Source of the DNA: a virus
Reading direction: 5' to 3' (one strand)
IMG/VR virus record: IMGVR_UViG_3300045988_159113
Length of the DNA: 64,000 bases
Under the pieces are notes generated by a model that did not search any database, had not been told where the DNA came from, and saw only the letters and a program-made list of their open reading frames with translations. A program made the position numbers and the translations under genes. Positions 864 to 31,500 of this stretch are shown piece after piece (the first letter of the stretch is position 1; each line of letters begins with the position of its first letter).

Positions 864-865
864 AC

Positions 866-5682: not shown

Positions 5683-5683
5683 A

Positions 5684-6658: not shown

Positions 6659-6665
6659 AACACAA

Positions 6666-6719: not shown

Positions 6720-6753
6720 AAAAATATTATTATTGTCTAAAATATTAAAAATC

Positions 6754-7434: not shown

Positions 7435-7438
7435 GAAA

Positions 7439-7476
7439 AGGACAAGTAGGAGAATATCCTATTTGTCCTTTTTTTT
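7439..7476. terminator. bidirectional terminator between the convergent arms
   Basis: AAGGACAAGTAGGA pairs with TCCTATTTGTCCTT (14 bp, one G-U pair), loop GAATA. A T8 run follows on the + side and a T-rich tract follows on the - side. Confidence 0.7.
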
Positions 7477-10400
7477 ACTTTTCTCTTTCGTTTCTAAAAA
7501 CGTCTGGTTTGATAGCATCAAATGCTGGCTTGAATTGTCGAGATGCAGAGAATGTATTGATACATCCATCCCAGAAATCTTCATCACCAGTTGCAATTTT
7601 TAACCAATTAGATACCTGTTTCCCAGTCCATTCAAATGCAAATGGCGTCCAGTTTGTGATTGGTGTACCGATTGAATCCATGAAATTAAAATCAAAAGAT
7701 GCATTCCTTAATGAAGCAATTGCAATATTAGCTGCAGACAAACCAAGTCCTGCCATAAAATCATCAGATTTTTTGTTTTCATTCATGGCATCTTTCAACC
7801 ATTCTCTAAGAAATCCTGAGATAATAGTTCCAAATAATATCCACATCATCAAATCTGTTGTGATCTGTTTGATGTTAGATCTGAAACGTTCGCGTACATC
7901 CTTGTTGGAATTATACCACATTGAAGAAAAACCTTCTTGAATAGATCCTGTGTCATACATTGACTTTGCCATTGTAGATAACTGAAGCATCACTCCTTCT
8001 CTCCAATCTCCTACCCATTTGTATACAGGATATCCCGTGTCTTCTGTTACTGGTTCAAGATCACGACGTACATTGTTATCTTTATCAACTTGATAGTATA
8101 ATTTTTCACCTGTCTCTGGTTTTTCTATCTATTTATAGTGTCCTTGCAAAGTAACGCCACCAGGAGCAAGGAATAAGTTTTTCTTACCAGACCAATACGT
8201 CCTGAATTGCATCCACATTGAGCCAATAAGAGTTGACTATATCAATGATTTTTTTTCATGGGAATAATATCCGTAGATATTATCCGCTAAAGATTTCATG
8301 CTCTCTGCTTGTTTATTTGTATAAGCTCTAGGTAGTGGTTTGAATTTCCCTGGCTCACGTACCCATGGATTTCCATTTTCATCTTTAACTCCTTCAAGTT
8401 CAAACTACTCAGCCATTACGTCATACAGCGCTTTTTGGTGCTTGTACATTGGATCCGATGTGTGCCCGTTTACTAACAAAGTGAATCGCTTATCTGCTTT
8501 GAAATCATATTTCAATACACCATCAACTAATTTGTGAGCATCAAGACATCCGTCAGCTTCCATCTATGACCCAAAGATAATGCAACGATTATAGTAATCA
8601 GGACGAGAAGAAAACTTCATCAAGAAATTTGTAAAGTTATGAATTCCAAATCTGTCTGATTTAATCTTGTCACCATATGTGTTCATATCCATATCATTCA
8701 ATCCATATAATTCATTGATTTTCATAAATAATGTTGGATGAGATGAATCTCTAAACATATCTGCATACACTAATTTTGCAGCTTTAGTCATATTATGAAA
8801 TGTGAATGATTGATTTCCATCTGGCTATGTAATAAACAAACGAATATCTGTGAATAATCCCTGTAACATCTGATAGAAAAACTACACCGGAGATAACGCC
8901 AAAGTAGCTAGAGATGCAGCATAACGCAATGAAGTCAATTTCTCAGCCACACCTTGGTATCTTGGATCAATAATAGATTGGTTGAAAATTTTATTCATCA
9001 CATACTCTTTCAGGTACTGCCTATCATTTTTAAAACCAGAAGGATCATTTTGTAATGCAGCAGACATTGTTAAATGAATCATTGCTGCTTTAATCATTGG
9101 GAAAACACTATCCATATTTTCTTTCATAGAATATGCAAGATCGTGTTTTATTACCAATGTCTCAAGGTTATGCTCTATGTTAGCAATGCCACCCATATCA
9201 GCGATTCGTTTAATTCTATCAGGACTTTCGTCATTAGCAACGTTGAATCGGTTGATCATCTGGTAGAAATTTTCATTTGCCTATTGCTGTTTTAAATCTT
9301 TACTAGCTTCAAATACACCTTCAGCTTTCATTCTCGCCTATTCCCATGCATACTTAGGATTTAAATATCTGAATATTTCTTTGATATTAGATAATAAGCC
9401 CTTTTGAGAATGTTTTGAACTTTCTGATGCAACTTCAAGGGGAACACGAAAATATCGAATATCATGTTCATCTCTCATCTTTTGAAGTTCAGATTCTGTA
9501 TAATTACTATACCTGTTGTGATTTATCTCATTCAATACAAATTCAAGAAAATCGCGCTCTTCCTAAGTATCTAATGTGCTAGGATCAACAAAAACAAAAT
9601 CTCCGTCTGGAGTGTGTTGCGTCATGTTCACATATAGATCTGTTTGGTTTCCCAACGTGTGAGTTTGTAAACTTCCAAATCCCTTTGCCTTTTTAAGGTT
9701 TTCAACAAGCTTGCTTATCTTGATCATCTTACGTTGCATATCATCTCGAGTTAGCTGATATGCTTGTGTGACCATTTTAGTAATAGTATTTAGAGTTTCA
9801 CTTGAAAGATTTCCAGGGTTATCTGTATATGTTCCAGATATTCCTTTTGTTAATATATTCGTACTTTCTAACCATTTAGAATGATCCCTGAGCTATTGTC
9901 TGAATTTGATTCCTCTTTTATCTGCTAAAGCAATAATAACCTGATTATATAACTGCATATGTTTCTTTTGTAAATTTGAATCTTTTACACTTTCTGTATC
10001 AGCAGCAAAATCATTTTCAAGCCTTTTTCTTAATTTTTCAAGTTCTCGAATTTGTTGCTCTGGGTTTTCAATTGCGTCATAAAAAGAACTGAGCGCATCT
10101 GTATATCCTGCAAATTGATAAATTTCTCCTTTGAAATTACTTGCTTTTCCTTCCTACATTATACTCTTAAAAGTATTAAATGCAAGCTGATATTTTGATG
10201 CAAGTTGTATATTCCCATTTTTAAAATTATCAACTTCAATTGGATCAATATCATTCAATGCTTTCCAGTTGTACGCAAGCTCTTCATTGGATAATGCTAT
10301 ACCATAAGCTGATCCTGGATTCATTACTTCGATACCTGTAACTTTTACATCACCAACGTCACCAAGAGCATTCAACAATAGCATTGTTTCTATGATTTCA

Positions 10401-12268
10401 ATATTACCAATTGTTGCTTCAGCAATAAGAGAGTCAGCTTGAGACTAAAAATACACATCATCTCGTCCAATACCAGCGCAAAGGTTTTTCATAATGCCAA
10501 AATTCTTTCCTTTATTACCCTCTGCTTCCTAGAAAGTCTTTGCATTATACAAGCCATAGTCAAGATTTTGTGTGGAAATTCTTTTGATATCCAATTCATT
10601 TGTTATAACATTACGCAACATGATAACACCAAACTACTCGGCTGCATCGCAATCAACAACTTTCCATTGCTTATTGCAATACTTTGCAAATCGCTCTTTG
10701 AACCAAGTTGCAGATAATCCGTGATGATTTGCTGATGCACTTGGGAATTTTACTTCTGATGTTTCATTTTCAATTCCCTCTTTTAATGCTGCAACAGTTG
10801 CATCATATTTTATCATTCGAAGGTTTCTGTCATCTTCAATGTATTTCTTAACCTAAGCCATCAGCGTTGCTTCTGCATCAGGTCCGGCTTTAACAACAAA
10901 AGTCTTTCCAGAACCTCCTCCATATGTATATGAAAGGTTGCCATCTTTATTTGGAGTGAATCCACCAGCTTCGTTTATTTTATCTCTTAGCCATTTGTCG
11001 TCAACCTTTCTTCTATCTGAATATGTGGGAAATAATCTTGCCATTCTATCTTTTACCTTTGTTAGAATCTGATCTGCTGGTATTGATATGCTATATTTGA
11101 ATGGTAAAATTTCATTCAAGTTTGCTTGTGTCCTTTCATTAGTTAACTATACAGTGATATCTTTCAATCCCTCAGTTTTACAATTTTCAAATGAGAATTT
11201 GTCTGTTGTTTCATCTAAATGAAAGCCATCCATCTGAATAGGTAAAACATAAGCCTTCTTGTCTTTCATGCGCAAGCCTAAATCGGACAACATTCTTTGA
11301 TATAAACCAATCTGATGAAACACTGTAATTTGTTTTGCGCTTGAATAATCAGAGAAAGCGTGAATAGATGTTTTGTAATCCACAATGTGCGTTTGTCCGT
11401 GTTTATCAATAACTACCAAGTCAGCAATACCATAGAGTTGTTGTGTGCATTTTGATGCGCCAATATGCGATTTAGCAGTCAAAGGCATCTCGGTGTAAAA
11501 TGTCAATGGACCCTACAACGAACTATTCAACTAATCATAGAATGTTTTTGCAATATCAATAACCTATGAAATCTAATCTAAAGATATACGTTCTGCATTC
11601 TCCGGTTTTAACATTCCATGTATCTTGCGACGGTCTGCATCTGAATTTGCGCCTAATGTCTACAGCCTTATCTTATATTCTTCGCTCTCGCCAGATACTT
11701 TCTAAAATAACAGTTGCAAAACTTCATGGATAGCAGTTCCGGTATACGCTTGTTCTTTCCATTTCCTTGTTATTCTTTTCCTGTAATCTTTGAATGTCGC
11801 ATCATCTCCTTTTGCTAATTTATGAGTTGTGCCATCATCTCCTGGACCAAACAAGTATTCAGCAACATCTTTTGAATATTCACCTTTTTCGAATTTTTCA
11901 CGAAGATTTTTCCACAGATTATCAGAATTGAATTCAGGGACCATATGATCTCCATTGATATTTCGAACAGCACCTAGAAATTTATTCACACCAGTATAAG
12001 GAGCAACTTCGCCATTCAGAAGGTTTCCATCATCATCGAATTCAGCCCTATTTGAATGCATGAACTCATTCATCTTTTTACGCAATTTGGATGTCTCTTC
12101 ACCATGTTTTTTTATCAGTTCATCCGCCTTTATTTGCTGTTCGCTAATACTGAAAACAAGATCTTTGTATTTAGCATACAGCTCACCTTTCTACATCAAA
12201 AAATCTTCAAGTTCAAGTTCAGATGTGAAAGGATTAATTCTTCCTTTTATATAATATACACAAGCCAT
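7475..12268 (-). CDS. 1597-aa giant protein with N-terminal RecB/Cas4-type PD-(D/E)xK nuclease domain and C-terminal hydrophobic segments
   Basis: One frame runs from ATG 12266..12268 (GGAGG about 10 nt upstream; TAATG overlap with the upstream gene) to TAA 7475..7477. It contains 23 in-frame TAGs and no TAA/TGA (hand-scanned). Motifs: GTAIHE, IADLVVID, IVDYKT, QIGLY. Confidence 0.8.
11300..11740 (-). other. PD-(D/E)xK nuclease core motifs
   Basis: GTAIHEVLQ (11723..11740), D in IADLVVID (11420..11422), DYK (11372..11380) and QxxxY in QIGLYQ (about 11300). The core is interrupted by six in-frame TAGs. Confidence 0.65.
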
Positions 12269-13341
12269 TAGTCACACACCTCCTTTAATTGTCCAGATTT
12301 AAGCATTGCTGATTTCATATTGTTCAATTTTCTATGTATAGAACTATCTTCTAATGGAAAAGAATTCACTGATGTCATCTTTGATGAATTGACTAAATCA
12401 GCAATTTGTTTCAATGAATATTTCCCAATATCCTATAGTTTAAGATCTCGTATTCCAAAAGAGCCTTCTAGCATTGTATCTATCATTCTATTAACCTAAA
12501 ATTGAACTTGATATGCAATATCAGGATCTATAGAATCAAATACAGATTTCTGGCCAGTTATAAATTTAGAGTATTCAGTCACAAAGATTTCTTCATTTAT
12601 ATCATTCCTTGATCTGTTAGGATATGTGCGCGCCATTTTCTCATAATTAGGAAGCTATTCGGATAAAGATATGAGTTGCATATAAAGATCAGGCTTTGCA
12701 AACCTTAGCTATCCAATAAGCATGTGAGACAATTCATGTATAGGAGAATCAACAGAATAGTTGTTCATGTTTATATATATCTACCCATTTAGAATGAATG
12801 CTTTTGGATTTGGATCTACTGCTATCACATCTTTAAACATTGGATCATTATGCAAATCATGCAAGTATACCTATTTGAAATGTATACCATACAAAGTTGC
12901 AAGTTTTCCAAATGCTGTATCAAGTATAATTTTAGAATTAACTTCCTCGTCAGGCTTGTATCTAACTTCAAAATTATTGTTGTATTTACTTGGACGGTGT
13001 GATATATTAACAATTGATGTTTTATTTAAAGGTAAAATATCAAATTCCAAATCATTATATGTATCTTGAGTATTTAATAATACAACAGCCTCATCAACAG
13101 TGTCAACCTGAAATTTATCTGTCAATTTAGATGTTTCTGTTGTATTGTTTTCTCGCAGCTCTAAAAATTCACGAGCATGCTCAGTAGTATCAGATCCATC
13201 TATTTCTGCTGGAGTCGGCCATCTGCCATTATGCTTGTCAGCATAGTCGATTATTTCTGCTTCAAGAAATAAATCAGAGAGACCGGTCCTCTCACTCAAG
13301 GACCGGTACTCATAACTTTTTTTATTTATACATGCATTCAT
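12268..13341 (-). CDS. 357-aa zincin-like (HExxH) metallopeptidase
   Basis: ATG 13339..13341 lies 2 nt after the TGA of the upstream gene. It ends at TAA 12268..12270 and has six in-frame TAGs. The motif SPIHELSHMLIG places HELSH at 12724..12738. Confidence 0.7.
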
Positions 13342-13343: not shown

Positions 13344-16300
13344 TCAACAACCATTTTGTTTTTTCTTTTCTTGGGCTTTTATTACTTTAATTAGTGTATC
13401 TCTACTAATTGTTGCCGTCTTTTTATTTCTGCTTATTATGATCGGATTATTTCTTCCTTTTAACTGTTCAGCTGGAATTTTACGAACTCCATCAGAGAAT
13501 TCAATTTCAAAAGAACTCAATTTTCCTGCATTAAATTGTACAGAAATCCTTGGATAGTATTTTCGTTTTTTGCCATCTTCCTATTGTTCTATTTCTTCGT
13601 CTGGACGTTTTCCAAGTTCAATTAATCTTCTACTATCGCCTATTTCTTCAAGATTAATATTCTCAGAATCATTTTCTGGTTTATTCATATCTATTTTTTT
13701 CTTGTCAAACGTCAGCTTCTTTTCTCCATTTTCATATGTAATCTTTACAGCGCCATAACCAAAAGTGTATGATGATTCCATTACATCATTACGATTTCTG
13801 ACATCATAAATTTTGTGATAACCATATTTGTCTTGATCTGCGGCATAAATAATGATGAGATCTTCGCCATTTGGACCTGTGAATTTTACACGACTTGATT
13901 TTTGTAAAGAACCAGTTCTGAAGTACTAGGTATCAACTTTGGACCTTATTTCTTCAAAATTAGAATCATACCAATTTGCCCTTCTGATTTCTTCCGTGTA
14001 TTCGAAATCATATGGTACATCGTAATATTCATCTTCATCGTAGTAACTGTTTCCTTTTTTAGAAAAAGCATCCATATTTCTCAATGTTGTCCATTCTCCA
14101 GTATGCGGATTGCGCTTTCTAACATATCCACTGTTTGCTGTCTTTGCACTAAAAATAGGAACAACATAAGGAAGAACATCTTCCACTTTTATGTCAGCTG
14201 TATTGTACCCAACAGTGTAGCGATCGCCATGTTTATCTGCTTCAGCAATGAATTTCTCAAGTTCAGAGATTATTCTTGAATTAGAAGCATCAACCAATTT
14301 TGTGAAAGTATTTTCACCTAAATTTCTGCGCTAGGCAATTATATTATAATATGCAAAAATATCATGTATAGGAATACCTCCATATGCAACAGTGCTCAAT
14401 CTCATGTATGCATTGACATATTTGTCAAATATGTGCTAATCTATTTTCTCTCTTGGAGATAGATTGATTGTCGGAATAGAGTAGTACAACTCTTCATTAT
14501 GTGAAACCGTTTTGTTTGACGATACAACACCAAGACCTGCAACAAACTCATTTCCTGAGAATTGTGCTTTCAAATATGGGATAACATCCTATTCAACCCA
14601 AGCTCTAAACGATGCATTGTTGATATCAGAACCAAGTACCAACTCAATATCACCTTCCGTCTATATAGAATTGCCATCCTAATCAAAAACGGTTCCACCT
14701 TTTGGAATCTTGAACTTCTAGTTCTTTGAAACAAGGAACTCATCAAGCATAAGATCATCATAGAATCGCCTCAATCCTTTAATTATATCTGTATCAGATA
14801 CAGATGATAATTTTAATTGAGTCTTTACTTTTTTGTAATTATCCAATCCAAAGCGATACTTTGCAGATCTCAAACTTGCTCTAGTGGAAACTGTCAATGC
14901 CTTCAAGAATCCGTAGACATCCTCTTTCCCGAAAATGATTGCGAGAGAATTGAATGCAACTTTTTTGTTTTCAAAATCTTTGATTGCTTTATCTCTTGCT
15001 TCTTTATTGAAAACAAACTGTTCCAGATCGATAGCATTATCAACACCAAGCATTTCTTCAAGAGAAATCAGCATTCTATCTGACGAAATTTCTTCGTTTT
15101 TAAGACCTTGGTTCAAACTCAGAATCTGACCAAGAGTTTTCATCTCTTGTGCTCCTTCGAAAAGTTTTTTGAAATCTTTGAACTCTTCTTTATGTGCATT
15201 AATCACTTCTGCTTGAGTCACGTATGTGATTAACTCATCAATAGCATAGCAAACTTTTGCACTGAAATCTGTACGTCCAGCTCCTTTTCGTGCTTCTATA
15301 TATTTAGCTTTTAGTTCATTCAAGGAAGCGATTTTTTTCTCAGGTGTATCATCTTGATTTTTAGACATTACAGCTTTTTTCAATATTTCTTCACCTCCCG
15401 CTAACTGACATAACTCTTGATATACAGTTTTCTTTGTTCTCTCTCCATTTTGAGACATGAAGTTGTATTTGCGTTTCAAATAATCCCATGGTCCTTGTTC
15501 TAAATAACTAAATACACCAAATAACGTATTGAAAGAATCAGTTTGATCCGTGAAACTGTTTGCTTGCAAAATCTATATGGCAAGATCTCCAACTGGTCCC
15601 ATTATGATCTTTGTAAGTGTATCAACTGGAACTCCAATCGTTACACCAAAGATATACATACCTAATGTTGCAGGATTTGCATTCAGCTTGTTCAAGCTCA
15701 AATCCTTGGCATTATCCACAGATAAACTCAATAATGCACTGACAGCAAGAGCAGGATCATTCTATGCTCCTGCATCAAGCAATTTTCTCAGCAATTGAGC
15801 ATTTAGTGTATTTGGAGATTTTGGTCTTACGTCAGAAGGCAGGCCATAATGTCTCCCGTTTATTGTTATATTAAAATACAGAGAATTTTGTCTTGGGTCT
15901 TGATCTGAATTCATTATCAAATCATAGTAGTACTATATAGCAGACAATGCTTTCAATCCAACAGCAGCAATAGAAATACAATCCTTACCAACTTGGTTCT
16001 CAACAATACCATTTGCTTTTAATGTTACAGAACCAGGTTGTCTGTATTCAATATCGTTTTTCTTAGATGTATCTGCAATTTCATTCCATTCATCCTTACA
16101 ACTATCAATAGGCGTTCTTGATTCAATCATATTCGCAGGATCTTTTGATACTTCTATCATGGATGATATCGTGATATTGTTTGCAATCTATCTTTGTACA
16201 TGCGGAGATTTGATCCTTCTCAAATACAAATTGTGTTTATTGAAAATATACAGTAATGAATTATTGAACTTTTTAATTAGCTCTTCATCAGAAATACCTC

Positions 16301-19300
16301 TTGTACTATCAACAAATCCGTACTATTCTAATGTATCACGCAAATCTTTTGTGTCTGAAGTGTTTAGTTTTATTAACTTTGGTACAGTCTTCAACAATGC
16401 TATAATACTTGGAATGTTGACTTTCTTATCTAATTCAAAGAAGATATGTTTCTTGTCAGATGGTTTGAATAACCCGCCAAACTATTTGAAATAAGTAAGA
16501 GCTTCATTTGCACTCGTTCCATCCAAGTATTCAGTGTCATCATTAGAAGACTACATGTTATTTTCGCGAATCTTATACTCAACAGATGATGGAGCAGGAA
16601 TTCTTCTTGACTGCTGAATTTCCTCGTATGTATCATATTTTGCATACGGTGACCACAAATACAGCTTTCCTCCTTTATCAACAGAGTATGTAGCTAATGA
16701 TACAGTATCAATATCATAATCAGAACCTTGTAACCAAATCTGATCAGTAGATACGAATGCATTATTTACGTCACTGTCTACAAATCCAACCACACGCATG
16801 GGCATGAAAGAGTGCTGACACTATGCAGGAATACGAGATGCTACAATATCAAGTGTTGTTTTAAAAGATGCATACATTCTCAATCCTTCTGTTCTAAACT
16901 TTTCCAGTAAGAATTTCGAGGAGCTGCTAGACATAGATTTCAAATAATCTTTGAATACCTCTTTGATTTGTGCGCTCTCGCTGCTGTCTTTCAATTCATC
17001 TATTATATTGTTAAGCTATTCATTTGTTCCTGATTCATATACAGAAAAACAACGATCAATATACCGATCTATATTTGTATCATCTACATTGTTGCCCAAA
17101 GTTATATAGCTGTATTTGATATTATCCAAATAAAGTTCTGGATTATCTGTGACTATAATCTTCTGGCAGTACAAGTTATCCACAATAATTTTGTCATCAT
17201 TTCCAATTTGGAATAATTCTGCACCATTATCACTCAGCAAGATTTTGTTTCCGTTTATATCTATAGTTGTGCGTGGAGATATTTCGTGTACATCTTTGAG
17301 TTTCTTGGCATTAGCTTTGCTAATAATATAAAAATGTTCTCCTGTGATATTTTTGAGACATATATCATACAAATTCTTGGAAAGGATACCGTCCCAGTTA
17401 TCCATTAATCTTTTACCAAAAAATCCTAAATAATTAATATCATTAGTTGGTGTTTCGTTTTCTATGAAAGATTTAGATTCATAAGAATCCAAAATATTAG
17501 ATACTGAATCGCCTGCTTTTAATCCGTAAACAGTTGCCATAACTTTTGGCATCACAACTTCATATGGATCACATTCAACTGTTGATCTATCTACATCAAC
17601 TTCTTGTCCGTTTATTTTTACACGAGTCCGATTTGCAACAATCTGCCTCAAGATCTCTTTTTGCAAATAGAAAAATTCTGGTGTAAGTTCAAGGATTTTC
17701 CCATTGATAGTCAATTTACGTTCACCTGTTCTTCCAAGTACATAATTTACCCAGTCGCGAACTCTATCACAATATGCGATTGTATTATCAAAACCATCAC
17801 ATAATTTGTCAAATTCAGACAACAAATCCGCAGTGTTTTGCGATAAATTATTCAAATCATACTGCGATTCAATCCTAAGTTTAGAATCAATTTCTTTTAC
17901 GACTTTATTAAATCTTTCTTTGTCAGAGATTACTCCATAATCAATACCTACTGTTTTGATTCCAAATGATATCAACTCATCAAAATCTGGCTAATCTGAG
18001 GATTTGATTTTTTTGATTATTGATTTCAGTTTGAATAAGTTGCGAATTGAATCAATATCCATAAGCTGAAACTTATTTCCAGAAGTATCTCTGAATATGT
18101 AGTTTATACTAGACAATTCGTGTCCAGCATTAGCAACCTCTATGACTTTAGAAATTTTTCCTTCGTTAATCTATTCAGTTAGAGCGATATAATCTTCTGC
18201 TGATGTAAGCTTTTTCACCTTAATTCTAGCACGGTCATATATCTATCTTGCTTTTTCCTTAACTTGTTCATTCGTCAAATCTTTATTGAAATGTTTTTGT
18301 AATGCTTCATAAATTGAAAGTTCAACATATTCATTGAATGTTTGATCAGGCTCTCCGAATATTTCAAAAACATCTTTCAGATTCTACAAATCAAGTAAAA
18401 TTTGAGACCCTTCTATTCTGACACCTTCCTTTATATTTTTTCTTGTATCTCGAATTCTTATGATATCAAAATCATTGTATTTGGTAACATTCTCATCGTA
18501 TTTCCATAAGTTGGGTATAATTTTGTATGTCTTACCAATACGGATTCGTGATGTATCTATCTTCTTGAGTTTTGAATCAGATGCTAAATCAATGCCATTC
18601 TCTTGCATATATTGTTGCGATTTCATTTGTGAAATATCAGCAACATTTACATTGTTTGTTGGCTTTACCTTTACAACTATATCTCCTGGATTAGCATCAA
18701 TTGAATCACCAAATTTCTACTCTACAAGTTCATCCTTACCGATAGCATAGACAATTGGATCTTCAAGAATTTCGTATTCAATATCATTTGCATCATACAA
18801 CAAATCACCTTTTCTGAAGTCAAAACGATCATTGCTGTCTTTGAAGTTGAATGACACGATCATCGTATTATCTTCGCTGTTCTATTTGAACGATTGAAGA
18901 CCTTTGACGTTATATTTACGTGGAACTTTTACAGGTCGTTTCTATTCCAAGAAATGATTGTTTTTCTCTTGTAAGTTTTCACGAAGTGGGTTGTTATCAC
19001 TGCGCATAATAACAGCAATATTTTTTGCTCTAGTCAATGCGGTATACATCAGCTTGGATTTAACGTCATCTGTTGTCCGTTTGTTATGCATAATATCATC
19101 ATGCTGAATAAGGACAACATCATAAGTAGAACCTTGCGCTTTATGTACTGTTGTTGCATAAGAAAGTCCAACATCAACAGCATCATTGTCTTTCATCCAT
19201 TTTTTCAATCCTGGATTATTTTCTATAAAACGCTAGCCAAATTGCATTTCAGGTATTACAGTCAAAGAAACCGTATTGCCATTTGATAGTTCTACCTATA

Positions 19301-22300
19301 TTTCCTGCGTGTGGAATGAACGCTATGCATTATCTTTCCCAATCTATGCCTTTTGAGATACTGGATCTGATACACTGACAATTTTGCCCTCCATGGAATT
19401 TTCAACAATCTCTGTGGTTTGTTTCATTACGACAAACTCACCAATTCCATATTGATTCTTTTTGTACCCTAAATAGTCGTGTATCTTATTGTTGAATCTA
19501 TTCACCTCATTGTTAGTATATGCAAGTATTTTGATAGCGCTCACATTTCCAGCTTGCACAGATTCTTTTATGAATTTAAGCGTCTGATCATTTAGGTCTA
19601 AATTGCTAGAGTAGATTGCGCCACTTTCGTTTTCATTTGTGATATTCGGAGAAGTTATTCCTGGAACATTATCGTAAAATCTTTCTGCATATCTCAAAAT
19701 CGGGTTTTCACTAGATCCTTGTCTCATATTCTATTCAAGAGCGAATCTCAGTTTTACAAGATTCGGACCAGCATTTGGGCTGAGATACATGTCCGGCTCT
19801 CGCATTTCAGAATCAAATATTGTGTAGTTATTAAACAAATCGTCTTCTAATGCTGGCAACTGACCTTTGTCTCCAAGTAATAACAAGATAGAACCTGGTT
19901 TCATTTGCAATCTGATCATATCAATCTGCGAATTGCTTAACATGGAAATCTCATCCAATACAACAATATCTGCATTTTTGATTGGTGCTTGTTTACCAAT
20001 ATGTGTGTAATCAAATACTCCATCCGCATTTGGCTTTATTCCAAGCATCTATGCAAAACTCAAAGATTTATAATTTGAATATCGCCCATGCTTAATACTC
20101 TCTGATATATTGGAAGAGATTATATTTTTAGCTTTATGACTTAATGCTCCAACAATCAAATTCGCCTATGATGTTATCCTCATTGGTAAATTGCGCAATA
20201 TTGCATCCACAGTTGATGTCTTACCTGTTCCTGCTTTTCCATCAATTACGATTGTTGAAACTTTTGTTGATTCATCACCAAAGTTTTCCGTGATCAGTTT
20301 AATTGATTCGCGTACAGCCTCAGACTGTTTTTTGTTTAACTGGAAACCATTTGATATGATACTGTCAGATACACTTTCATCAGTAGGATTTAGTTCAATA
20401 TTGTCGTTGAATTTATTAGAGAAATTTTCACGCCCTTCTTGTGCATCTACATACATCATGGAAACTTCTGGATCTATGAATGTACGTCTCTCTCTAGTAC
20501 CTTGCTTTGTTATATCTATTTTTGACATAACGGAGTTTGGACCGCCGAGATATGTAATGCCATCGATACTATCAATTGCTTGTACAATAGCGTCTTTTGC
20601 TTTAGTATAGTTGTCTAGACGTTCTTTCTTACTCTTTGTTGTATCTGCAACTATTGCGAATTTAGATTTCAAATCTTCTGAAATGCCAGCAATTAAATGG
20701 TTTTCAAATTTATATCCATCTCCGCTTATATCTTTTGGACTTCTTGCTATATCTTCAAGTAAATTCAACAAATCATATAACTCATTGGCATCTTTTACAG
20801 ATTCTTGACGACCAAAACAATATGCTGTATTTTCAATATCTGTTTTTACTGAGTACAAAACTGGATCAATTCCATTCGGAGACATGTCCCAATTTGATTT
20901 ATCAAATTTACCTTCATGTATTGCTGCACAAATAGCTGATTGATCAAATGTGTCTTCAGTAGAGTGAGTTGAAAGCATTATCTTCTTATTCACCTATTGA
21001 AGCATTTGATACAAAGAAGAAGGAACATAATATTCCCATGTCTGTCCGGCCATTGCTAGCTCTTGCTTTATAAATGATGCATTTATAACCTCTTGAGAAT
21101 TAGATATTGCAAAGAAGTTTTGTCCAGCTATACGTATTGGTGCGATGATAGCATCATTGCCAAAGACCTTTTTGACATCTTCAACAGTGCCAAGTGCCCC
21201 ATCTTTTGAAAGCGATTCGTCATCACTACCGATTAGCAGAAGTGCTCCATCTCGTATCGCCAATTTCCCTTCGTCTATGATTGTTTTGTTTATATCTTGC
21301 TTCGGCTTGCTCTTTGGATTCAATGTGCAAATCAGTACAATATCACCATTTTGATACTATGAACAGTTGACTACATCTGGATCTTGTTTTAGTGCCATTG
21401 TGACACTGCGCTCAGACAAATAATTTTTTTCGCTATTTTCCGCAGATGGCAAATATCCTATATATTTGTTTGATATCTAAGCCATGACATTGAGCTGTTC
21501 AAAATCTTTTTGTATTTCCTGTTTCTTTGAAAATACAGGCTCGAGATTCGCTGTCTCAAATTCATACGCCCAAGATACATTCTCCAAAAGTTCTGCAAGT
21601 ATTCTTGCAAGGCTTCTGCTTGCTGGCTATCCATCATATATTACCTTTGACGTATCTTTTGCCATCATGTTTTTATAAGCAAGAATAAGTTTCGGATTTT
21701 GATATGCCCACAATTCATATAATGGTTTCAAAAATGTCTCGTATTCTTCTTCTCCATATTTTGATGGCTTAGTATCTGTTGCTTTGTTATAATCATCTAT
21801 TATTTGTTTGATTGATTTACCTGAAATGTCTTGCAAAGAATCTTTTTTCGCTGTAGATCGTGGTGGTCTCTTTGTAAATACAGGCTCTTTTCCTGGTTTT
21901 TTAGGCTCTTCGCCAGTTTGCGTTTCTTCCCATTTCTAATATTTAGCTTTTGCTTTCTCCCATTTAGCATGTGCATCTTCAAATTCTTTGTGTTCTTTTA
22001 TATATGCATCATGTCTTTTGTTGAATGATTCAATTGCTTCTCTTTGCTTTTCTTCATAGAATCCTTGAAGCTTTTGAAATATAGTGTCTGGCAAATAAGT
22101 TCCGGGTTTAAATGTTGCATTTGCTGGTAATAATGCACCAAAAGATGTCTGAAAATTGAAATATTCACCTGTTGGCAACTACTATGACCAGCGGTCTTTT
22201 GCCGGTCTATCATCAAATACAAATGTTTTTTCACGATATATACATTTACCTCCATTGATCACAGCCCAATCTTGATTAAGATGTTTTGCACTCATTACAG

Positions 22301-25300
22301 CAGCATATCCAATACCAGATTGTCCATCAGATAAGATTCTGATTTTTTGATCTCCTATGCTAGTTGTTATACCTTGTATAATTCCAACAAACGTTCTATT
22401 GAAATCTGATTGCTATATGAATTTGCTTTTGAACTTAGTAATATCATCGCCTATTATACAAATATTTCTTTTGTCTGTTGTATTAGCAGCTTTGATATTT
22501 TCAACAATAGTTTCGATTGTATTATTGATGAAACTCTAATTTCCAAGATCTGTGTCAGATATTTCTATTATATGCAAAAGTTTCTTTTTGTCTTTTGCTT
22601 TTTTATTTGCTGCATCTATGCGTTGCTGTAAATTAAGAATATCCTTTTGGTTTTTATCTTTTGTGAACACGTAAATCTCATCAGATTCTACCATCAACTA
22701 TTGATATAGCTATGAACGTCTCCCTTGTTCTAAGAATGTAAAATGCTCATCAAATTTTTCCCCATCAGTTTTCTCTTGTGTCTACTCTTCGCTTCTCTAC
22801 AACACATTCCGTTCCATTTTGGGAATTATTATCTTTGACTTATCTTCTGAAAATGCATAAGCATCAGCAATACTCTAATCATTTGCAAGACCATCAGCAG
22901 CATCATGCTCGCTATTGCCTTCAATAACATCCAAGAAGCCATATTCCCTGAACATCTCATAGGTTTTGAGATTATCTTTGCTAACTTCAGAATTTGCAAA
23001 TCTTATATCCTTGCCAATAGGAACAGCATTTGTAATAGCTGAGAATAAACTTGAAAGCTATTCTTCTGTCAATCCGTTTGTGTCCATATTGAATATGATA
23101 TCATATTCATTTGTCTAGAAATTGTATGTCAAATCTATATATCCATCATGGCCGTTTATACTATAGCGTGTAGCATCTACGTTCATGTGTTCTCCGTCAG
23201 CGTTTGATGCGGAAAGTGTGATTTGTTTAATATCTACATCTGTATTTCTATGCAAATCAAAAGCAGCATCTTGATCATATGAATTTTGTAAAGCGTTTAT
23301 TTCTGAATCAAAATCAGCGAAATCTTTTTTTAGTTTACCATTACCGTAAACGAGTACACAGTTATATGATGGAGTTAACACACTCAATGATCCAGATATC
23401 TTGTGCTTGATACCTTGCTTTGTGAGTATTGATGCAATAGATGATATAGCTTGTCTATATATAGATTTTGCACTGAATGGAATTTCCAATTCGGCATAAT
23501 CAATAACCTAGCCATGTCTTTCTTTATCCAATATTTCCTGGGCATACTGCTTTGCTCTATCTGTTTTGCCTGCTCTATTTGCTAATGTCTTTATGAGGCT
23601 TTTATTTATAGCAGCATAGAATTCTTTTGTTGCGTCGGCTACCTATGATTCTGTAGATTTCGGATCAAGCATTTTCTCAAATGGAACAATGAAATCTCGT
23701 GTTCCAACTTTATTCAAAGAATATAGGGCTTTGTACAAATTCTGTGCAACATCAAATGTGAATCCTCTAAATGCACATGCATTCATCACCTGTGTCATCA
23801 TCGAAAGCTCAGCCTCGTCTGCTTGGTGCTCCTTATCAAGCTGTATTCCAAACTGAGTTGTCAAGAAGTATGACCAATTTAATTTAGCATTTTCATCATT
23901 ATATACAGTATTTGGATTCATGTTGCACTGGAACATCTTAACAGCCCCCTCAGTTGGCATATAGTGTATATTGGCATGTTTAAGAACCTAATAGAAATAT
24001 TTGACACTATCACCATCTTGTATTTTTACAAAATCAAGCTCATTGTCAGTCGGGTCAAGTTGATCCTTAACAACACCTATATCATTTGCCATATCAGCAA
24101 TCATCTGTACGGATCGCTCTGAGAGAACAAGCTTGCCTTCTGTATTCTTTGAATACGAATTTTCTCCTCCGAAAATTTCCCAAAGTGTGTAGTTGTTGTC
24201 AATTTTAACAGCCTCACCTGTTGGCATGTTTTTGATAAGATTACCATAAGCATCAACCTATTGCAACTTTACATAATACATGTTAATGCCAGGAGCTTTT
24301 TCAAGAGAAACACGATAAAATTCTCCATTCTCTTTTTTATAGACAGGTCTCGTTGAGAAATCTATACGATTGCCTTCTATTGTCCTAGTAATATCTCCGT
24401 CCCATTCAGTACCATCTGGATTTATCCATTTCAAAGATGCGCTCATTCTGAACAGATTACGATATACGCTTGAACCACGCATGTTTTCATTATTCAATGG
24501 GAATGCGGCTGTCTTCATCATTCCAGCACACATGAGCCTCTCATTATAATAATGAGCATACGGTTTCTTTGTCTAGCCCACTCTAGCACTGGCAAGCGAA
24601 TTGTTTTCCCAATATACTTGCATTGGACTTGTAAATGTCGCACCATCAAACGGTTTCACTCTATCAGTTTGACCCAAGTTGTTATAAGCGGATGCATATA
24701 TGTCTTGAATCAATGCTAACTTTGCACGAGTTGTTATGCCATTCCTCTGCCCAAGCTGGGAACCTTCCATTGCTGCTGTAAGTGATACATTACGTTTTGT
24801 TTGAGCAAGATAACGCAACGATTCGGCTGCCATTATCTTTTCACGTTCTGTAATTGCAGAAGTCTTTCCTTTAGGTATATGAGAAATAATTGATCCAACA
24901 GAGCAGTGAGTATATTCAGAAGAAAGTAAATAATCCACAAGATTATACTGTTCCAACAATGGGTTCATCTCAACGTCAAATTTCCCATCTTTCAAAAATT
25001 CCTTTTCTGTTACGTTCGGATCAAGCAAATAGAGATCTGTGTAATTTTTTATATCGTAAATTTTACCGTCTTTTTTAATTTTTGCAATAATCATCTAGCC
25101 AGAATTCTCATCATACCAGAACACTCCTTCTTTCTGACGGATTGCATCAAAACGAGCCTTGAGATCAACAATTTCCGGATTATTTCCTCTTGCCTCTTTC
25201 ACTGCTGCTGATTGCCCGTTTGTCGCAAATGCAAGACTCAGGTCTATTGCAAAATTATTTTGCAATAAATCCCAGACAGTTTTCTTGTTTTTATAATTAA

Positions 25301-28300
25301 AGAATTCATCTATAGTATAAAAATCAGATAGGTTGATCGGTGTTAATCCTACATTGCCAATCTGTGTATTAAGATTCTCGACATAGTCTTTGTTGAACCT
25401 GTACAACAAAGAAATGATTGTGTCGTTGAACTTAATATTTTCATTTTTATCAAATGTGCAATCTACCTAATTATATAATTCTGCAGGGTTCACTCTTCCA
25501 TTATCTTCGGTATTATACCACAGCAAAGCTTTATCGAACAACTATTTGTGTGTATTGATTCCTATTTCTTTCAATCGTCCAGCATTTTCATTGAACCAAT
25601 TATAGAAAGACTAAAATCCAGATAATGCATGCGGTTCGTTTGCGTAAAAATTAAATTGAGGAATTCCCCATTTATCAATATATTTGTTTATAACGGTAAA
25701 AAACCCATTGCTACTGTTCACGAAATCTTCTGAGATATTTTCATATACCCTTCTGTATTGCAAACCAATTTCATTGCGTATAACTCGAAGCAATGTGTCT
25801 TTTTTCTGCTATGTATTCATGTTTTGATCATTCAACACCTTATACATAGTTTGATTATTATCCAATTTGAATAGAGCAAGATTGAATATCGCTGTGTTCA
25901 CTTCACTTTTATCTGAGTTCGTTGTTGGAAGTATACCAATAACACCATCACCAAAAATGTCTTTGCTAGTCGATCCTGTTATTAAGTTTTGGCTAGATGA
26001 TTTTTTCATTAGTCCAGATATGAACTGATACAAAAATCCTCCATACATAAATTCAGCCGTGTTGAATTTTACGGTTCGTTTGCCTTTCTGTGCATACGAA
26101 TAGCTTTCAAGATTCTTGGCAACGCCAACAAACAATCCTGGCATTTTGACAAAAGCAGAATCTTTTGTTGCTGAATCTTCTTTTGTACATTGCAGCTCGA
26201 CCTATTCCTAAATACTACCCAGTAATCTGCTCATGCTATATGGTGAATATGCTGATCCATTTCCAGATTTCACAATTGATGGCATATTCATTTCTTTCAC
26301 AGCAAACACAGCTCGTGCTATTCTTATAAATTCAGGAGTCATCGTTGGAGTTATCAAAGAAAAACTTTTTCCTAATAATTCCGGCGCATCATTACTTGGG
26401 AAATATTTTTCAACTAATGCAACCTTATCATCACGTGTTTTTTCATTTGATAAACCCGTTTGCAACTAATCTTTCAATATAGCATTTGCTTTTATTTGAT
26501 TAGCAAACAAAAACAGGTCTTTGACAGCATTAAAATCACTTCCAGATCCCTTGTATTTTTTGAAAAGATAATCATTATATCCAAACCCAAGACAAGTCTG
26601 ATTCGATACAAATCGCTTCAATATTCCAATAATATTACCAGCATCTTTGCTTGGAAGATTATCGAAGAAATCCTTCACACTCTAATCAGATAATACAATC
26701 CGACCTGAATCTGTGTTTAATAAAGTTATCGTAGGCTTTTTTGGATTTTTTGTGTCTGTTTTTACGGTAATTTTATACCCGTCTCCTGTAATCCAATATG
26801 TGATTTTGTTTGGGTTCTTTTCGTCAACCTACGCATTATGTCCTTCAACTGATAATTTTAAAGCATGAGATCCGTTGATATTGTTTTCAAGCCTGATTTT
26901 CAAATTATCAAATTCCTGATCAAAAAGATATCTGACTCTAGTTCTTCCTCTTCTGTCTGTATAATATTGCGTGATTGCATTTTTATATATAGTTGCAGCG
27001 TTTTGCGTAAAATTATACAGAATGTCACGATTCACATCGAGATGATACAAAGAATCACTTTCTGAGGAAAATATGCCTCTATAAATAGAGAACAATTTGT
27101 CTTTCTTTTCTTTTGTATCATATCCATACTGTGCAAACAACTATTTGATTATCTCTTCATTTTGAAATTTAGCATTGTTTAATAATTCCAAAACATACCG
27201 TATGTTGTTTTCCATGTCAAGTTTCATTGATGTGATACAACGCCGTAATGTTTTGTGCTTTTCAACATATGTTTGTGTTTCTTTACTAAGGCCAAGATCG
27301 GATATTTTTGCGCTAAATAATCCATCAGCTCCTATTTCTACATAAGCGCCTGGAGATGATGCCATTGTTTTAATGTCTGCAATTACAGTTGCAAAATCAG
27401 AATAACTCAAATACAAATCTGGCTTTGCTTTTTTAGTTACAGAATCATATTCAGATGTTGTTTCGATTCCACCTTTTACAATGTAATTGATTAACTTGTC
27501 AACTATAATCTCATCTGCTTCAGCATGCGTCGTTCTATTTGTGTGACTTTTATTTGCCAAAGCATATGCCATATATCCGTTGTGTTGTTGCTATGTACTT
27601 GGCAACATCTCAATATCTTTTCCAAATAGTACAGTCAGGAAGGAATCAAAATTTGACAACAGAACAAATGCATTGTACGCATCAATAAATGCTTGAGCTT
27701 TCTTTCCGTTTTCAGTTTTCGGTTCACTCTCTGCAATATTTGCTTGTTCCAAAATATCTTCTGATGTGAATCGGTTGAAAAAGTCTTGTAATCTTGTTTT
27801 GTTCAGATCAAAAAGATATGTTGGCATTAAATTGTCACTTGCATCTTTCCTGTATAATGTGCCCGTGATAGAATTTTCACCTTGACCTTTATTTGCATTG
27901 TAGTACTCTACAAGAATCCCAAATTGGGATTCCTGTAAAGTTTTGAGATTATTATTCATCTAAAGTTGTGAAGTCACTGCACCGGCATTATCTTCTCCTC
28001 CTATCGAGCCTCTATTGATGAAGCATGATTCCCAGATGTATCTTGTGAATTTATCCTCGAATCTAGACCTTAACAGATACATACCACGAAATGCATAATC
28101 AAGGAATAGCAAATTCAATTCATTATCAGCATGCTTTCCATACACACTTTTTGTAGTCTCAACATTTGATTGTGTAGTACTTGGAGTTTCTGGATCAGCA
28201 GTTGCTTGTGTTACACCAGTGATTGCTCCTCTAATTATTGGACCGAAATCAAAATTGCTAAATCCTGAAGCATTTGAAAGTATTGTGTAATAAAGAGACG

Positions 28301-28535
28301 ATTTGATTATTGGCTCTGCAAGTCCAATAAAATCATCAACATGATCTTTTATGTCTGGGCTAGAATTCAAAATGTTTTCTCCGATATGTTTGCATATTGT
28401 TTGTGCCCAAGCAACAAATTTTTTTTCTGGAGTTGAATTCTATTTCATTACGTCCATAAATATGGACGTGCTGCCCATTAAAGTGGTACGAACAACAGAT
28501 TTTGCTGTTTCTTCATTAAATTTACATTTATTCAT
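13344..28535 (-). CDS. 5063-aa giant multidomain protein: SLOG-like motif, Dda/RecD-type SF1B helicase core and beta-prime-like DxDxD RNA polymerase catalytic loop
   Basis: One frame runs from ATG 28533..28535 (first ATG after in-frame TAA 28551; 11 nt after the upstream gene's TAA) to TGA 13344..13346. Every gap between track ORFs was hand-scanned: 66 in-frame TAGs and zero TAA/TGA. Confidence 0.8.
16707..16721 (-). other. DYDID (DxDxD) metal-binding motif of a two-barrel RNA polymerase
   Basis: The reverse complement GATTATGATATTGAT encodes DYDID. Context: IVASRIPA[TAG]CQHSFMPMRVVGFVD..NNAFVSTDQIWLQGSDYDIDTVSL. This parallels bacterial beta-prime NRAPTLHRLGIQAFEP...NADFDGDQMAV. Confidence 0.65.
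19023..20240 (-). other. SF1B (Dda/RecD-like) helicase core inside the 5063-aa ORF
   Basis: Motif I GKAGTGKT (20217..20240), II VVLDEISM, III LLLGDKGQLP, V ATTVHKAQGSTYD, VI YTALTRAK (ending at 19023). The motifs are in canonical order and are separated by seven in-frame TAGs. Confidence 0.75.
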
Positions 28536-28545: not shown

Positions 28546-31500
28546 TTAACTTATAGAAAGGACTATTGAACAAATTCCTGTTTGATTTTCTTCAATATCT
28601 TGTTTGAGCTTTTGTGCTAGTGTTTCAAGCTGATCGACTGCAGTTTTTAAATCTATTTGCCCATTTTGAATATCTTGTATTATAGTAAGATTTTGACTAG
28701 TTAACATTCCTATAAGGATATTTACTCCTTCATCTAATCTGGTAAACGAGCTTAAAATATCAATTGCCTGTATAAAGTTACTAATTTCCGTCTTGATAGA
28801 ATCTTCATATTCAATTTTCTAAGTATTACCATTTTCATCAGGTATCATTTTCTCTATTATCTTTTTTCCTTGATTGCTCAAAATAGGTGTAGGAGGAGTT
28901 CCTGGCGCGCCAACAATGCTAACATTGTTCATTATTATATTTGCATCGCTACCCAACTAGACCTATACACCACTACTTGATCCTCCTTCACTTCTGGATT
29001 CTGGATGCTTTTCAACTGAGTAGTTTACACGTAATTTTCCGGTTGCCATATCAGATTCAAAATTTATGGTTAATTTATCACCATTTGAGTTTTTAAATTC
29101 AATACCCAACAATGTTTCTGCATTTTCATCGCTAATTAAATCAATATCAATATCATCTGTAAATTCAAAATCTATATTTTCAAAATTTATATTTTGATAT
29201 TGCGGTATTGAATTGAAAATCGCCTTCCAACTTGTAAGAGAGTGTGAGATGACTGGATACTATATAGTTTGTCCGTTTAACGTACCATTGAGTTGAGTGC
29301 ATTTTCTAATGTTGCACACAAATGCAGTATATTGCATATTTTGAATATCATTCGGTTTTATCCTTCTTGCATTTTTCGGTGGGAATATATCAGCATCTCC
29401 GTCTAATACAATGTCAAGAAAACTCTCATCACCTCCAAATAAATGTTTTGCTACTTCAGCCTTAAATTCTTCATCAGTTAATGCTCTGCTTCTACTTCTA
29501 CCTCTTGATTGAGATCTCGTGTAAAAGAATGGGTGTGGCTTTCCGGTTCTTCTATCAATATTTGTGTATCCATACAAATCGTCATAGCCATTTCTTTTGT
29601 TCTCTTGCTCAGCATGATCAATTGTTTCCAAAAACAAATTGTATAAATTAGTTAGGTTAACATTAAATGCTGGTGTATCAAGTTTTCCATATACAGTGCA
29701 AGGCCTACCTTGTAACGAGTACGTTGTAAAACCATACATATCTCTATCTTGGTCTATTAATCTAAAATCATCCTGTCTGTCTTCATTACTTTGATGCTTA
29801 AACTTAGCAACCGATCTCACTGCATATTCATCTCCAAGTAATGCTTTAAATGCATTAATCCTTGCTGTGTTTATCGTGTCTGAATTATTATCATATGCTA
29901 TGTGATGTAATAAATCATTACATAAAGCTGTGAGTGAGTGCTATGTGGTTATGTCCTGAAGCCCTTGTTTTACAGTTCGTGTGATTGTTATATTATCTAT
30001 GTCGGTATAATTATATTCTCCTCTTATGGTATGTGCTATTGCATTTAATATCGTATGAGCTAATCCATGCGACGCTGTTTCCACAGTCGAGGTTGCCAGT
30101 TGCCAGCTTCTTGATGTGTTCTTGTATTTTGCAATATCAGATCCATCAAGGAAATTCCTCAATTTAGTCAATCTGTTATTATCAACTTTCCCATCAGATC
30201 CAATGATTGCATCTCGCAAGATCTTATATGATGAGAATTTGTTTCCAATTCTGAAATTACCAGAAGCACTGCGAGTTAATATTCCATGAAGGTTTTCACA
30301 ATATTCTTCAACACTATAAAGAGGTGTGTATACATAGGCGTAGAAAACATCTTTTCTTGAATTAGGATTATTTCTCTACTCTTTAAATTTATCAATCAAA
30401 TCTCCTTTTGTGTATGCAGGATTGAAAGAATACAAGACGAACGGCATACCAGATTGAACCTCTATTTTTTTACCAGGTTGAATCTCTATGTTTTGAATTT
30501 GTGATGTCAGCATTAGCATGTCTGTTTTTATACACATAGGATTAGACAAAGCTTTTGCAACTTCTGTTGCGTTCATTTTATCTTCAGCCTTGAATCCCAA
30601 ACGTGGATCTAATGCAGTAGATCCTCTTTCGGTTGATCTTGTATTTGACTGTGGGTTGCCTATACTTGCAAGATTAGTATTTTTTGGCAAAAAAACGATG
30701 TCATGATTAGTACTGTCAAAGAACTTAAATGACTATAAAAGCCATTTTAAAGTGTTTATCTTTTTCTTGTTTTTCGCAGTATTTGCATTTGATGCACTTT
30801 CTCTTGCCTCAATCTCTGTTTTCAAAACAGTCTATATACTTGTAGACTTATTATGCGTTTCGTCACCAGAGGTCAATACTCTATCGATTTTTTTGAGAAT
30901 ATTATTTTGAATAGTATTCTCATCATTAAACAGATCTAAAAACTCTTGACTCTAAATCAGTGAGAATGGATTGTTTAATGTCATCATTGGTAATTCCAAG
31001 AATAGCTGTGATGTGTTTTTCCCATCTGCGTCCTCGCTCTCAATTCCAATAAATGAGACAATTTGATTTGGACTTGGTGGGATATCCATGTCTTGATTAA
31101 ATTCAAGACGCTCCGCTTCGTTTCTGTTAAAGATTCCGTATCTTTGACCACTGTAGTTTGTTTGATCTTCCAATGTATTTCCATCTGGTCCATATTTCAC
31201 AAATCTTGTTTTTATTGCATGATCTATGAACAGATTGCCTATTTCAGCATTGAAAACATCTTCTTTTACATTAGCTCTTGTACCATCTATTTGTATATTT
31301 TGACTTTGAACTTTTGACTTTACAAAAGCAAAAACATTTGTACATGCTGATTTGATCTATTCTTTTAGTGTATCATTATTTACAGTACTTAAAAGTGCAG
31401 CTCTAAATGGAGCAATTAGTTTGATAGCATCTTCTCTAGTAAAAAGACTGCGGAATGTATCAAATACGTCTTTGTTAATAGCAAAATTGTCATATCCGCA

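Follow-up and report, generated by a model that had tools for sequence, protein, structure and literature searches.

A 5063-codon TAG-recoded phage gene encodes a probable homologue of the virion RNA polymerase of crAss-like phages, enlarged by a helicase-bearing insertion

Background

The RNA polymerase that crAss-like phages carry in their particles has one characterised representative, gp66 of phi14:2 (2,180 amino acids, aa), a single chain with two barrels. It travels in the virion, is delivered into the cell along with the DNA and serves the early genes, the middle and late genes being left to the host polymerase (Drobysheva et al., bioRxiv 10.1101/2020.03.07.982082). The same study reported that alanine at each aspartate of the gp66 DFDID motif abolishes RNA synthesis, that the enzyme uses single-stranded or denatured DNA efficiently and double-stranded DNA hardly at all, and that its structural relative QDE-1 needs a helicase, QDE-3. 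How transcription by a crAss-like virion polymerase starts on a double-stranded phage genome is unsettled, the sole characterised enzyme being good only on single-stranded DNA. Here we describe a 5063-codon gene (hereafter the giant gene, and its product the giant protein) located at positions 13344..28535 of a 64,000-nucleotide (nt) stretch of viral DNA, IMG/VR record IMGVR_UViG_3300045988_159113, which was analysed over its whole length and is called the window below. The giant protein is probably a homologue of the virion-packaged single-chain two-barrel RNA polymerase, in a crAss-like phage that reads TAG as glutamine (Gln), and it would owe its length to a helicase-bearing insertion of ~1,700 aa.

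Several described systems come close to this locus. Besides gp66, the polymerase gp50 of crAss001 (2,412 aa) is available for comparison, and giant DxDxD (‘RNApB'’) proteins are encoded by the Zeta group (Yutin et al. 2021, PMC7886860; proposed family Echekviridae, PMC12386605), whose contigs reach ~200 kb and which has recoding in the late genes only, a giant ‘transcription block’ carrying DxDxD and PDDEXK motifs, and introns. Among Suoliviridae, cr50_1 encodes a 4,774-aa protein (YP_010110216.1, RefSeq ‘DNA helicase’) and cr113_1 (YP_010112838.1, RefSeq ‘DprA-like...’) has a single 4,328-codon frame studded with 73 in-frame TAG; in both, a GSDFDID polymerase core and accessory enzyme domains share one coding sequence. 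The 4,287-aa giant of another crAss-like genome, Fpv3, is annotated as a ‘structural protein’. With these three on record, giant polymerase genes that are studded with TAG and also encode accessory enzymes were already known as a kind. Two other enzymes of similar size (~3,500–5,000 aa) are also delivered by the virion and serve the earliest transcription: the N4-like virion RNA polymerase (~3,500 aa, PMC13434306), which is T7-like and not two-barrel, and the two-barrel polymerase of P23-45 (5,002 aa, bioRxiv 10.1101/2022.12.01.518664), which is fused to the tape measure. The present gene stands apart in three respects: its size, which no other in this analysis reaches, a helicase placed within the polymerase core instead of at its end, and the unassigned domains that accompany this helicase.

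The giant protein as a polymerase homologue

The giant gene runs on the minus strand, as do all features given below unless the plus strand is named, from an ATG at 28535..28533 to a TGA at 13346..13344, and comprises 5063 sense codons with 66 in-frame TAG, no TAA and no TGA. The same coordinates and counts had been given in an earlier note made from the letters of this DNA, and our recount reproduced them exactly; that note named neither an RNA polymerase nor a crAss-like context, both of which were recognised here by profile comparison and from the neighbouring genes. A search of 5.8 billion proteins returned one relative first and then, through that relative, more than 217 clusters. The family thus found consists of proteins of 3,000–3,721 aa, without Pfam domain or name, encoded on contigs of up to ~200 kb (160–200 kb). 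As an example, residues 1–1750 of the giant protein align with residues 1–1654 of the family member P0140 (28.5% identity over 1,750 aa, E 1e-163) and residues 3427–4881 with its residues 1690–3158 (E 1e-159). In addition, the giant protein begins with MNKC and ends in ...NGC, in keeping with the conserved termini of its relatives; nearly all family members start with MxxC and have a Cys within their last 1–4 residues, and the corresponding residues of the giant protein are C4 and the C-terminal Cys (window 28524–28526 and 13347–13349). By these alignments the giant protein is a full-length family member, collinear from end to end and with conserved termini, thus the product of one gene and not of several.

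The assignment to a polymerase family comes from the catalytic module (aa 3893–4326; 15558..16859), in which a beta'-like double-psi barrel with RIPAQ...GSDYDID precedes segments like a bridge helix and a trigger loop. A full-length hidden Markov model (HMM) of the family was uninformative against the crAss001 proteins, so that sub-profiles and hhalign were needed. With the sub-profiles, gp50 was the sole match among ten crAss001 proteins, and it was matched at four collinear places; where gp50 has ...YRVPTE...SGSDFDVDKLYIM, its counterpart in the family reads ...SRIPAQ...QGSDYDIDKAYIM. With hhalign, the family (giant 3860–4330) matched the profile of crAss001 gp50, phi14:2 gp66 and their relatives (the Steigviridae polymerase) with 98.4–99.0% probability and E values from 1e-14 to 4e-18, giant residues 3893–4326 corresponding to gp66 1314–1664. 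Within this span, D3939-Y-D-I-D3943 (codons at 16707..16721) falls on the DFDID of gp66 (1361–1365), its three Asp being invariant in the family, and R3901 and Q3905 of the RIPAQ strand fall on R1322 and Q1326. The profile alignment also places giant residues 4183–4195 in gp66 1543–1554, inside the bridge helix (1529–1559), and residues 4264–4285 in gp66 1600–1623, inside the trigger loop (1598–1636); the domain limits of gp66 are those of bioRxiv 10.1101/2020.03.07.982082. Judged by this catalytic module, the giant protein belongs to the crAss-like virion RNA polymerase family.

Upstream, the N-terminal core (aa 1–1732; 23340..28535), which opens with the conserved MxxC, has a collinear counterpart in every family member, namely its N-terminal half. 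Its segment 1512–1729 (GIQLDKEH..., IPFS..., SGSLSVLTPS; 23349..24002) is homologous to the Connector, as it aligns with gp66 1044–1249 (Connector 1095–1238) at an hhalign probability of 87–93% and E values from 4e-6 to 5e-7. Just upstream of it, in the collinear position, lies the conserved block KRNV..DGATF..ENNSL..KKP (aa ~1240–1350; 24486..24818). Its K, R, D, DG and K columns are invariant, and it is the candidate region for the first (beta-like) double-psi barrel. The claim in the earlier note that the N-terminal ~2500 aa hold no motif that can be named, a SLOG-like patch excepted, does not stand for aa 1–1730, which form a conserved polymerase-family core of which aa 1512–1729 align to gp66. 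Between the insertion and the catalytic module lies a family-specific region (aa 3436–3892; 16860..18230) that is common to the 3,000–3,700-aa proteins and has no counterpart in gp66 or gp50, and the catalytic module is followed by a C-terminal region (aa 4327–5063; 13347..15557) that is family-conserved to about aa 4900 and ends in a ~160-aa tail with the conserved Cys.

Compared with gp66 and gp50, the giant protein is more than twice as long. It has in common with them the catalytic module (DYDID versus DFDID), the RxPxQ strand, the segments corresponding to the bridge helix and the trigger loop, the Connector-like segment upstream, the single chain, and a location in a giant late-gene block beside tail and muzzle genes. 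It differs in that its gene is TAG-recoded, in that its first barrel is only a candidate, and in the material between the Connector and the catalytic barrel, where residues 1730–3892 (the ~1,700-aa insertion and ~460 aa of the family-specific region, thus ~2,160 aa) stand in place of the 64 residues 1250–1313 of gp66; it is the gp66 alignment that places the extra material between these two domains. The N-terminal ~1,500 and C-terminal ~740 residues of the giant protein have no detectable similarity to gp66 and resemble nothing outside the family; according to its authors, most of the gp66 structure is likewise without resemblance elsewhere (bioRxiv 10.1101/2020.03.07.982082). Searches of the N- and C-terminal thirds against Pfam and PHROGs gave no match, nor did a megablast of the giant gene against GenBank phages, and tblastn with the C-terminal third or with the catalytic region of a homologue found only the unannotated human-gut records MT835470 and MT835492, on neither of which literature was found.

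Reading frame and genetic code

When read with the standard code, the giant frame falls into 67 pieces and the polymerase goes unrecognised, which makes this locus a case for annotation practice. On this basis, one could hold that TAG is a true stop and that what lies here is a series of short genes, a pseudogene or a misassembly; that no suppressor tRNA is seen in the window would agree with such a view. Several independent observations contradict it. Each of the other five frames contains 138–496 TAA or TGA over the same 15.2 kb, and the chance of 5063 codons without either is ~1e-118 (from the mean of 5.2% per codon in those five frames), which bears out the statement of the earlier note that the frame cannot be chance; as one frame, it requires TAG as a sense codon. 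The G+C content, which that note had put at ~30%, was measured at 33–36% for this stretch and 37% for the whole window. The proposed start is the sole in-frame ATG downstream of the upstream TAA and lies 10 nt past the stop of the preceding 3379-aa gene.

The frame is also replicated in independent assemblies. Three IMG/VR contigs (117, 142 and 197 kb, from one metagenome, the longest being IMGVR_UViG_3300045988_155098) are 96.6–97.7% identical to the window in nucleotide sequence, and codons 546–5063 are open in all three, with no new TAA or TGA and with all alignment gaps compensated; the first 560 codons, read in two of the three, show stops only at the TAG positions of the window and the same start context. 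Substitutions are mostly synonymous. The ratio of nonsynonymous to synonymous polymorphism (pN/pS) is 0.07–0.17 whichever part is taken, be it either core (N- or C-terminal), the insertion, its helicase or the tail. Furthermore, when a TAG-free 275-aa piece of the insertion was searched exhaustively with HMMER against 1.84 billion representative proteins, P0166 (5043 aa) was the sole match. The alignment of P0166 with the giant protein covers 5,172 columns, begins at residue 92 and reaches the end; identity is 38% overall, 42–44% in the cores and 27–35% across the insertion. The gene of P0166, on contig L006 from a different sample (28% G+C), is collinear and in its 5043 codons meets TAG 129 times but neither TAA nor TGA until the terminal TAA; it is followed, as in the window, by the genes of the 357-aa protein and of a PDDEXK-bearing protein. 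The frame-breaking assembly indel that the earlier note had named as a possible refutation is therefore not found, the frame being open in the three contigs as well as in the distant relative L006. Together with the end-to-end homology that crosses every TAG, the purifying selection, the TAGs that fall on invariant Gln columns and the like recoding of all late genes of the window (both detailed below), these data refute the reading as an artefact, to which we give practically no probability: the giant frame is a real, conserved, single gene and not an assembly artefact. At 5063 aa its product lies, as had been supposed, at the upper extreme of phage proteins, and it is the longest among all relatives found (family up to 3,721, P0166 5,043, cr50_1 4,774, cr113_1 4,328 and Fpv3 4,287 aa).

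The identity of the TAG-encoded residue was examined in an alignment of the giant protein to 28 diverse homologues. At the TAG columns these homologues have Gln more often than any other residue (14.5% versus a background of 4.5%), and it is found in 22 of the 28 homologues at TAG position 778, in 19 at 1023, in 26 at 1516 and in all 28 at 3905. The last codon (16821..16823) encodes the Q of RIPAQ that aligns with Q1326 of gp66. In addition, the commonest exchange at the TAG codons among the three close relatives is between TAG and CAG or CAA, and P0166 has Q at 12 of the 66 TAG positions. From these alignments, TAG is read as Gln in the giant gene (genetic code 15), and it accounts for 29% of the Gln codons of the gene.

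This recoding extends over the late side of the window. If translation ends only at TAA and TGA, tightly packed open reading frames (ORFs) of 1597, 357, 5063, 3379, 639, 2280 ... 2001 aa fill the minus strand between 7475 and 63998, all 18 minus-strand ORFs terminate in TAA or TGA, and the TAG density in the giant ORFs is 8–23 per 1000 codons. In the plus-strand genes that face them (metallophosphoesterases and a DUF1599 protein), TAG is rare or absent, which would be expected if they are expressed before the suppressor acts. Note that the early-type genes of the plus strand (window 1–7940) are mostly without TAG, that some of these ORFs end in TAG or need read-through (6655–7434, with 2 TAG), and that the ring and adjacent structural genes on the minus strand (59769–62223) contain none. 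The G+C content is ~33–35% in the region of the giant genes (window 1–36000) and 40–44% in the tail and structural part (42000–64000).

The insertion and its helicase

The lineage-specific insertion (aa ~1733–3435; 18231..23339) begins after the conserved ...SGSLSVLTPS motif, where the family varies in length, and it occurs only in the close relatives and in P0166; its sequence is absent from all 165 other family proteins (165/165) and resembles nothing among the other proteins of the window. Against six known crAss polymerase giants, the insertion matched only the helicase of cr50_1. Residues ~2677–3177 (19005..20507) carry a Walker A motif GKAGTGKT at 2766, DEIS at 2861 and TVHKAQG at 3129; they match phrog_325 (Dda-like) with an E value of 2e-48 and, above cut-offs, PF13245, PF13604, PF13538 and PF01443; the Pfam families concerned are Viral_helicase1, AAA_19, AAA_30 and UvrD_C_2. 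The match to TIGR01447 recD (E 8.5e-19) lies below the equivalog cut-off, so that the protein is not RecD itself. By these motifs and profiles, the segment is a superfamily 1B (SF1B) DNA helicase of the RecD/Dda type. Its homologue in cr50_1 is 23–31% identical (E 3e-7 and 4e-5) and sits at the C-terminal end (aa 4247–4715, with DxDxD at 3152), whereas the helicase of the giant protein lies upstream, between the Connector and the catalytic barrel; beyond the helicase and the catalytic motif, neither cr50_1 nor cr113_1 has detectable similarity to the giant protein.

In the other ~1,200 aa of the insertion, blocks such as KDNLKTYEMFREYGF, DGQSG, QDISGKSI, NKYIGYLP and MSPNGIDP are kept in P0166. 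The SLOG-like patch of the earlier note corresponds to about aa 2020–2100; when residues 1741–2720 were searched against PHROGs, NCBIfam and, at E values up to 5, Pfam, no SLOG, DprA or LOG profile matched, and there was no alignment to the ‘DprA-like’ giant of cr113_1, only a DGQSG-type motif being common to P0166, and the SLOG assignment was rejected as it has no profile support at all.

The narrow distribution of the insertion raises the question of whether it is a selfish or recently acquired mobile module (intein-like, intron-encoded or a captured gene) that occupies a permissive loop and has no role in the polymerase. Indeed, Zeta-group genomes are rich in introns and inteins (PMC7886860), the insertion site is variable within the family, other members carry unrelated inserts, and none of the 165 family proteins has a homologue of this one. 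However, the insertion remains in frame over ~5.1 kb without TAA or TGA, its pN/pS (0.09–0.14) is that of the core, and it matches no Hint/intein or homing-endonuclease domain. It is also kept at 27–35% identity in a lineage that is 38% identical overall, which argues that it is old and selected as a protein. We thus consider a mobile module highly improbable, and an intein or intron origin was rejected because the insertion is in frame, under selection and devoid of Hint and endonuclease domains. Judged by eye, inserts of other kinds occur at other sites in P0009, P0014 and P0015, which include a P-loop kinase-like segment (GHPGIGKTT), an HExxH-like segment and one like the LPLY..WA..NP block of the giant protein; the polymerase scaffold seems to accept varied passenger domains.

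Possible role in early transcription

Several results weigh against taking the giant protein as an intact homologue of gp66. The candidate first barrel aligns with gp66 1013–1053 at an hhalign probability of only 0.3%, which is not significant, and an AlphaFold2 (AF2) model of this region from a homologue was confident (predicted local distance difference test, pLDDT, 83) and beta-rich, without a Foldseek hit below E 0.5. For the window itself, the AF2 model of the 89-aa catalytic fragment between two TAGs reached a pLDDT of 57 and gave meaningless matches. PDB sequence searches gave no match even at E ≤10, either with the C-terminal third or with the family profile. The ~1,200 aa of the insertion outside the helicase have no Pfam, PHROG or NCBIfam match. 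No tRNA gene, and hence no suppressor tRNA(CUA), was found in the 64-kb window or in 119 kb of the flanks of its relatives, while amber-recoded Zeta phages usually encode such a tRNA (PMC12386605). Finally, the core is only ~10–30% identical to the homologues from which virion packaging and activity are extrapolated, several family members are encoded in two ORFs, so that a single chain is not obligatory for function, and the giant protein may be cleaved after translation.

The last two points lead to another reading of the locus, in which the gene encodes one precursor that is cut, before packaging or after ejection, into polymerase halves and free helicase or cargo. The enzyme that might cut it is a 357-aa HExxH (HELSH) protein, whose gene (12268..13341) starts 2 nt past the stop of the giant gene. 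In P0155 and P0151, the polymerase itself ends in this module, which makes up its C-terminal ~350 aa (35% identity; E 1e-63 and 4e-61), and the same holds for P0003 and P0016; as it is separate here and fused in these relatives, genes have undergone fusion and fission at this boundary, and the HExxH protein could be a maturation protease. The insertion also coincides with the boundary between two domains, the Connector and the catalytic barrel, and whether gp66 needs proteolysis for its activation was left open by its authors (bioRxiv 10.1101/2020.03.07.982082). On the other side, the HExxH protein has no protease-family match (in PHROGs only), no cleavage motif or mark of a processing site was identified in the sequence, and both gp66 and the typical family members are single chains, gp66 being active as a full-length recombinant protein (bioRxiv 10.1101/2020.03.07.982082). 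We therefore regard a polyprotein as unlikely.

For a single-chain homologue of gp66, the characterised enzymes suggest the following course. The giant protein would be made late, once the TAG suppressor becomes available, then be packaged in the particle and ejected into the host with the DNA, and there it would transcribe the early genes, which are written in the standard code. The layout of the window, with a TAG-rich late gene beside the tail genes and low-TAG early-type genes on the opposite strand, provides the context for such early transcription. The built-in helicase may supply a single-stranded template, or pull DNA in, and so serve a polymerase that does little on duplex DNA by itself. 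Such help in cis is plausible because gp66 hardly transcribes duplex DNA, because QDE-1 depends on a helicase and because cr50_1 also has a fused homologous helicase. The data above show a real single ORF, TAG read as Gln, membership in the family, homology of the catalytic module, where the insertion lies and that it is conserved, and what the helicase is; virion packaging, early-gene transcription, the role of the helicase and the lack of processing are what we infer.

One may go further and see in the giant protein a self-sufficient ejected machine, in which the helicase and ~1,200 aa of unassigned enzymes within the two-barrel polymerase core open or reel in the duplex and feed the polymerase its own single-stranded DNA; we hold this to be possible but rather doubtful. 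If it were true, it would be an in-cis answer to how polymerases of the gp66 type, weak on double-stranded DNA in vitro, initiate on phage DNA, and the giant protein would be the largest single-chain RNA polymerase in this analysis (5063 aa). The presence of a helicase within the polymerase chain in at least two divergent lineages, with the homologue located elsewhere in cr50_1, suggests that helicase and polymerase work together, and the giant gene is a natural construct for testing such cooperation.

Genomic context

The neighbouring genes bear on the placement of the phage. Near the far end of the window, a 2001-aa protein (52673..58678) is a probable homologue of the crassvirus muzzle (PF25731 crAss_MUZ, E 6e-6; PF25729 crAss_MUZ_C, E 4e-4; TAG-free fragments, both below the Pfam cut-off), and a 231-aa protein (59769..60464) of crAss tail ring protein 1 or tail tubular protein (PF24228 CrAss_Ring_1, E 7e-5; blastp to crAss001 gp43, E 2e-4). 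Genes for terminase, portal and capsid either escaped recognition in the window or lie beyond it. The layout is that of cr50_1, in which a giant block on one strand is followed by early genes with metallophosphoesterases on the other, and cr113_1 has the same genome layout. With the Zeta group, the locus shares contigs of 160–200 kb, late TAG recoding, a giant multidomain block with DxDxD and PDDEXK, introns or breaks in the polymerase genes of relatives and few BLAST hits to known phages. It differs in that the typical Zeta-like members found here are 3,000–3,721 aa long and lack the insertion, and in that the giant gene has no interruptions, unlike the many polymerase genes of the Zeta group that are fragmented. 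Altogether, the phage fits a crAss-like phage most like the Zeta group, with a genome of at least 197 kb, the group being assigned by shared features.

The PDDEXK part of the block is a 1597-aa protein with a PD-(D/E)xK nuclease domain (7475..12268; PF12705, 29.6 bits versus a cut-off of 22), whose position is conserved by synteny in contig L006 and in L001, a standard-code relative. In L006, a type I restriction enzyme R-subunit-like gene (HSDR_N, ResIII, EcoR124_C; L006:25585–28443) lies on the opposite strand just past the PDDEXK giant. On the other side of the giant gene, a 3379-aa protein with 36 TAG (28546..38685) ends 10 nt before the giant ATG. It has its own SF1-like P-loop (GPGTGKT, IIIIDEIS; weak AAA_19 match), so that the block may carry a second helicase-like module, as well as Pro/Gly/Ser-rich linkers, and its homologue is a 2930-aa protein of L001. 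Searches of ten neighbouring proteins against PHROGs matched only a Zn-dehydrogenase; this 624-aa protein (48112–49986, minus strand, 1 TAG), in the tail/cargo block, matches a zinc alcohol dehydrogenase family over its N-terminal 350 aa (phrog_2640, E 4e-40), to which an unassigned C-terminal half is fused.

Interrupted polymerase genes were seen in several relatives. In L001, the gene consists of ORFs of 2482 and 748 aa separated by a 300-nt gap (L001:17413–17742) that scores 50.6 bits (E 6e-12) with RF00028, the model for group I introns, and interrupts the trigger-loop-like SAATD|NAKEL. A split pair, P0040 (2394 aa) and P0038 (1086 aa), corresponds to the intact P0012 (3481 aa). In P0002, P0014 and P0025, the ORFs end right after LQGSDY, inside the catalytic DxDxD, and the rest is called as a second ORF, in agreement with the unexplained breaks reported for Zeta-group polymerase genes.

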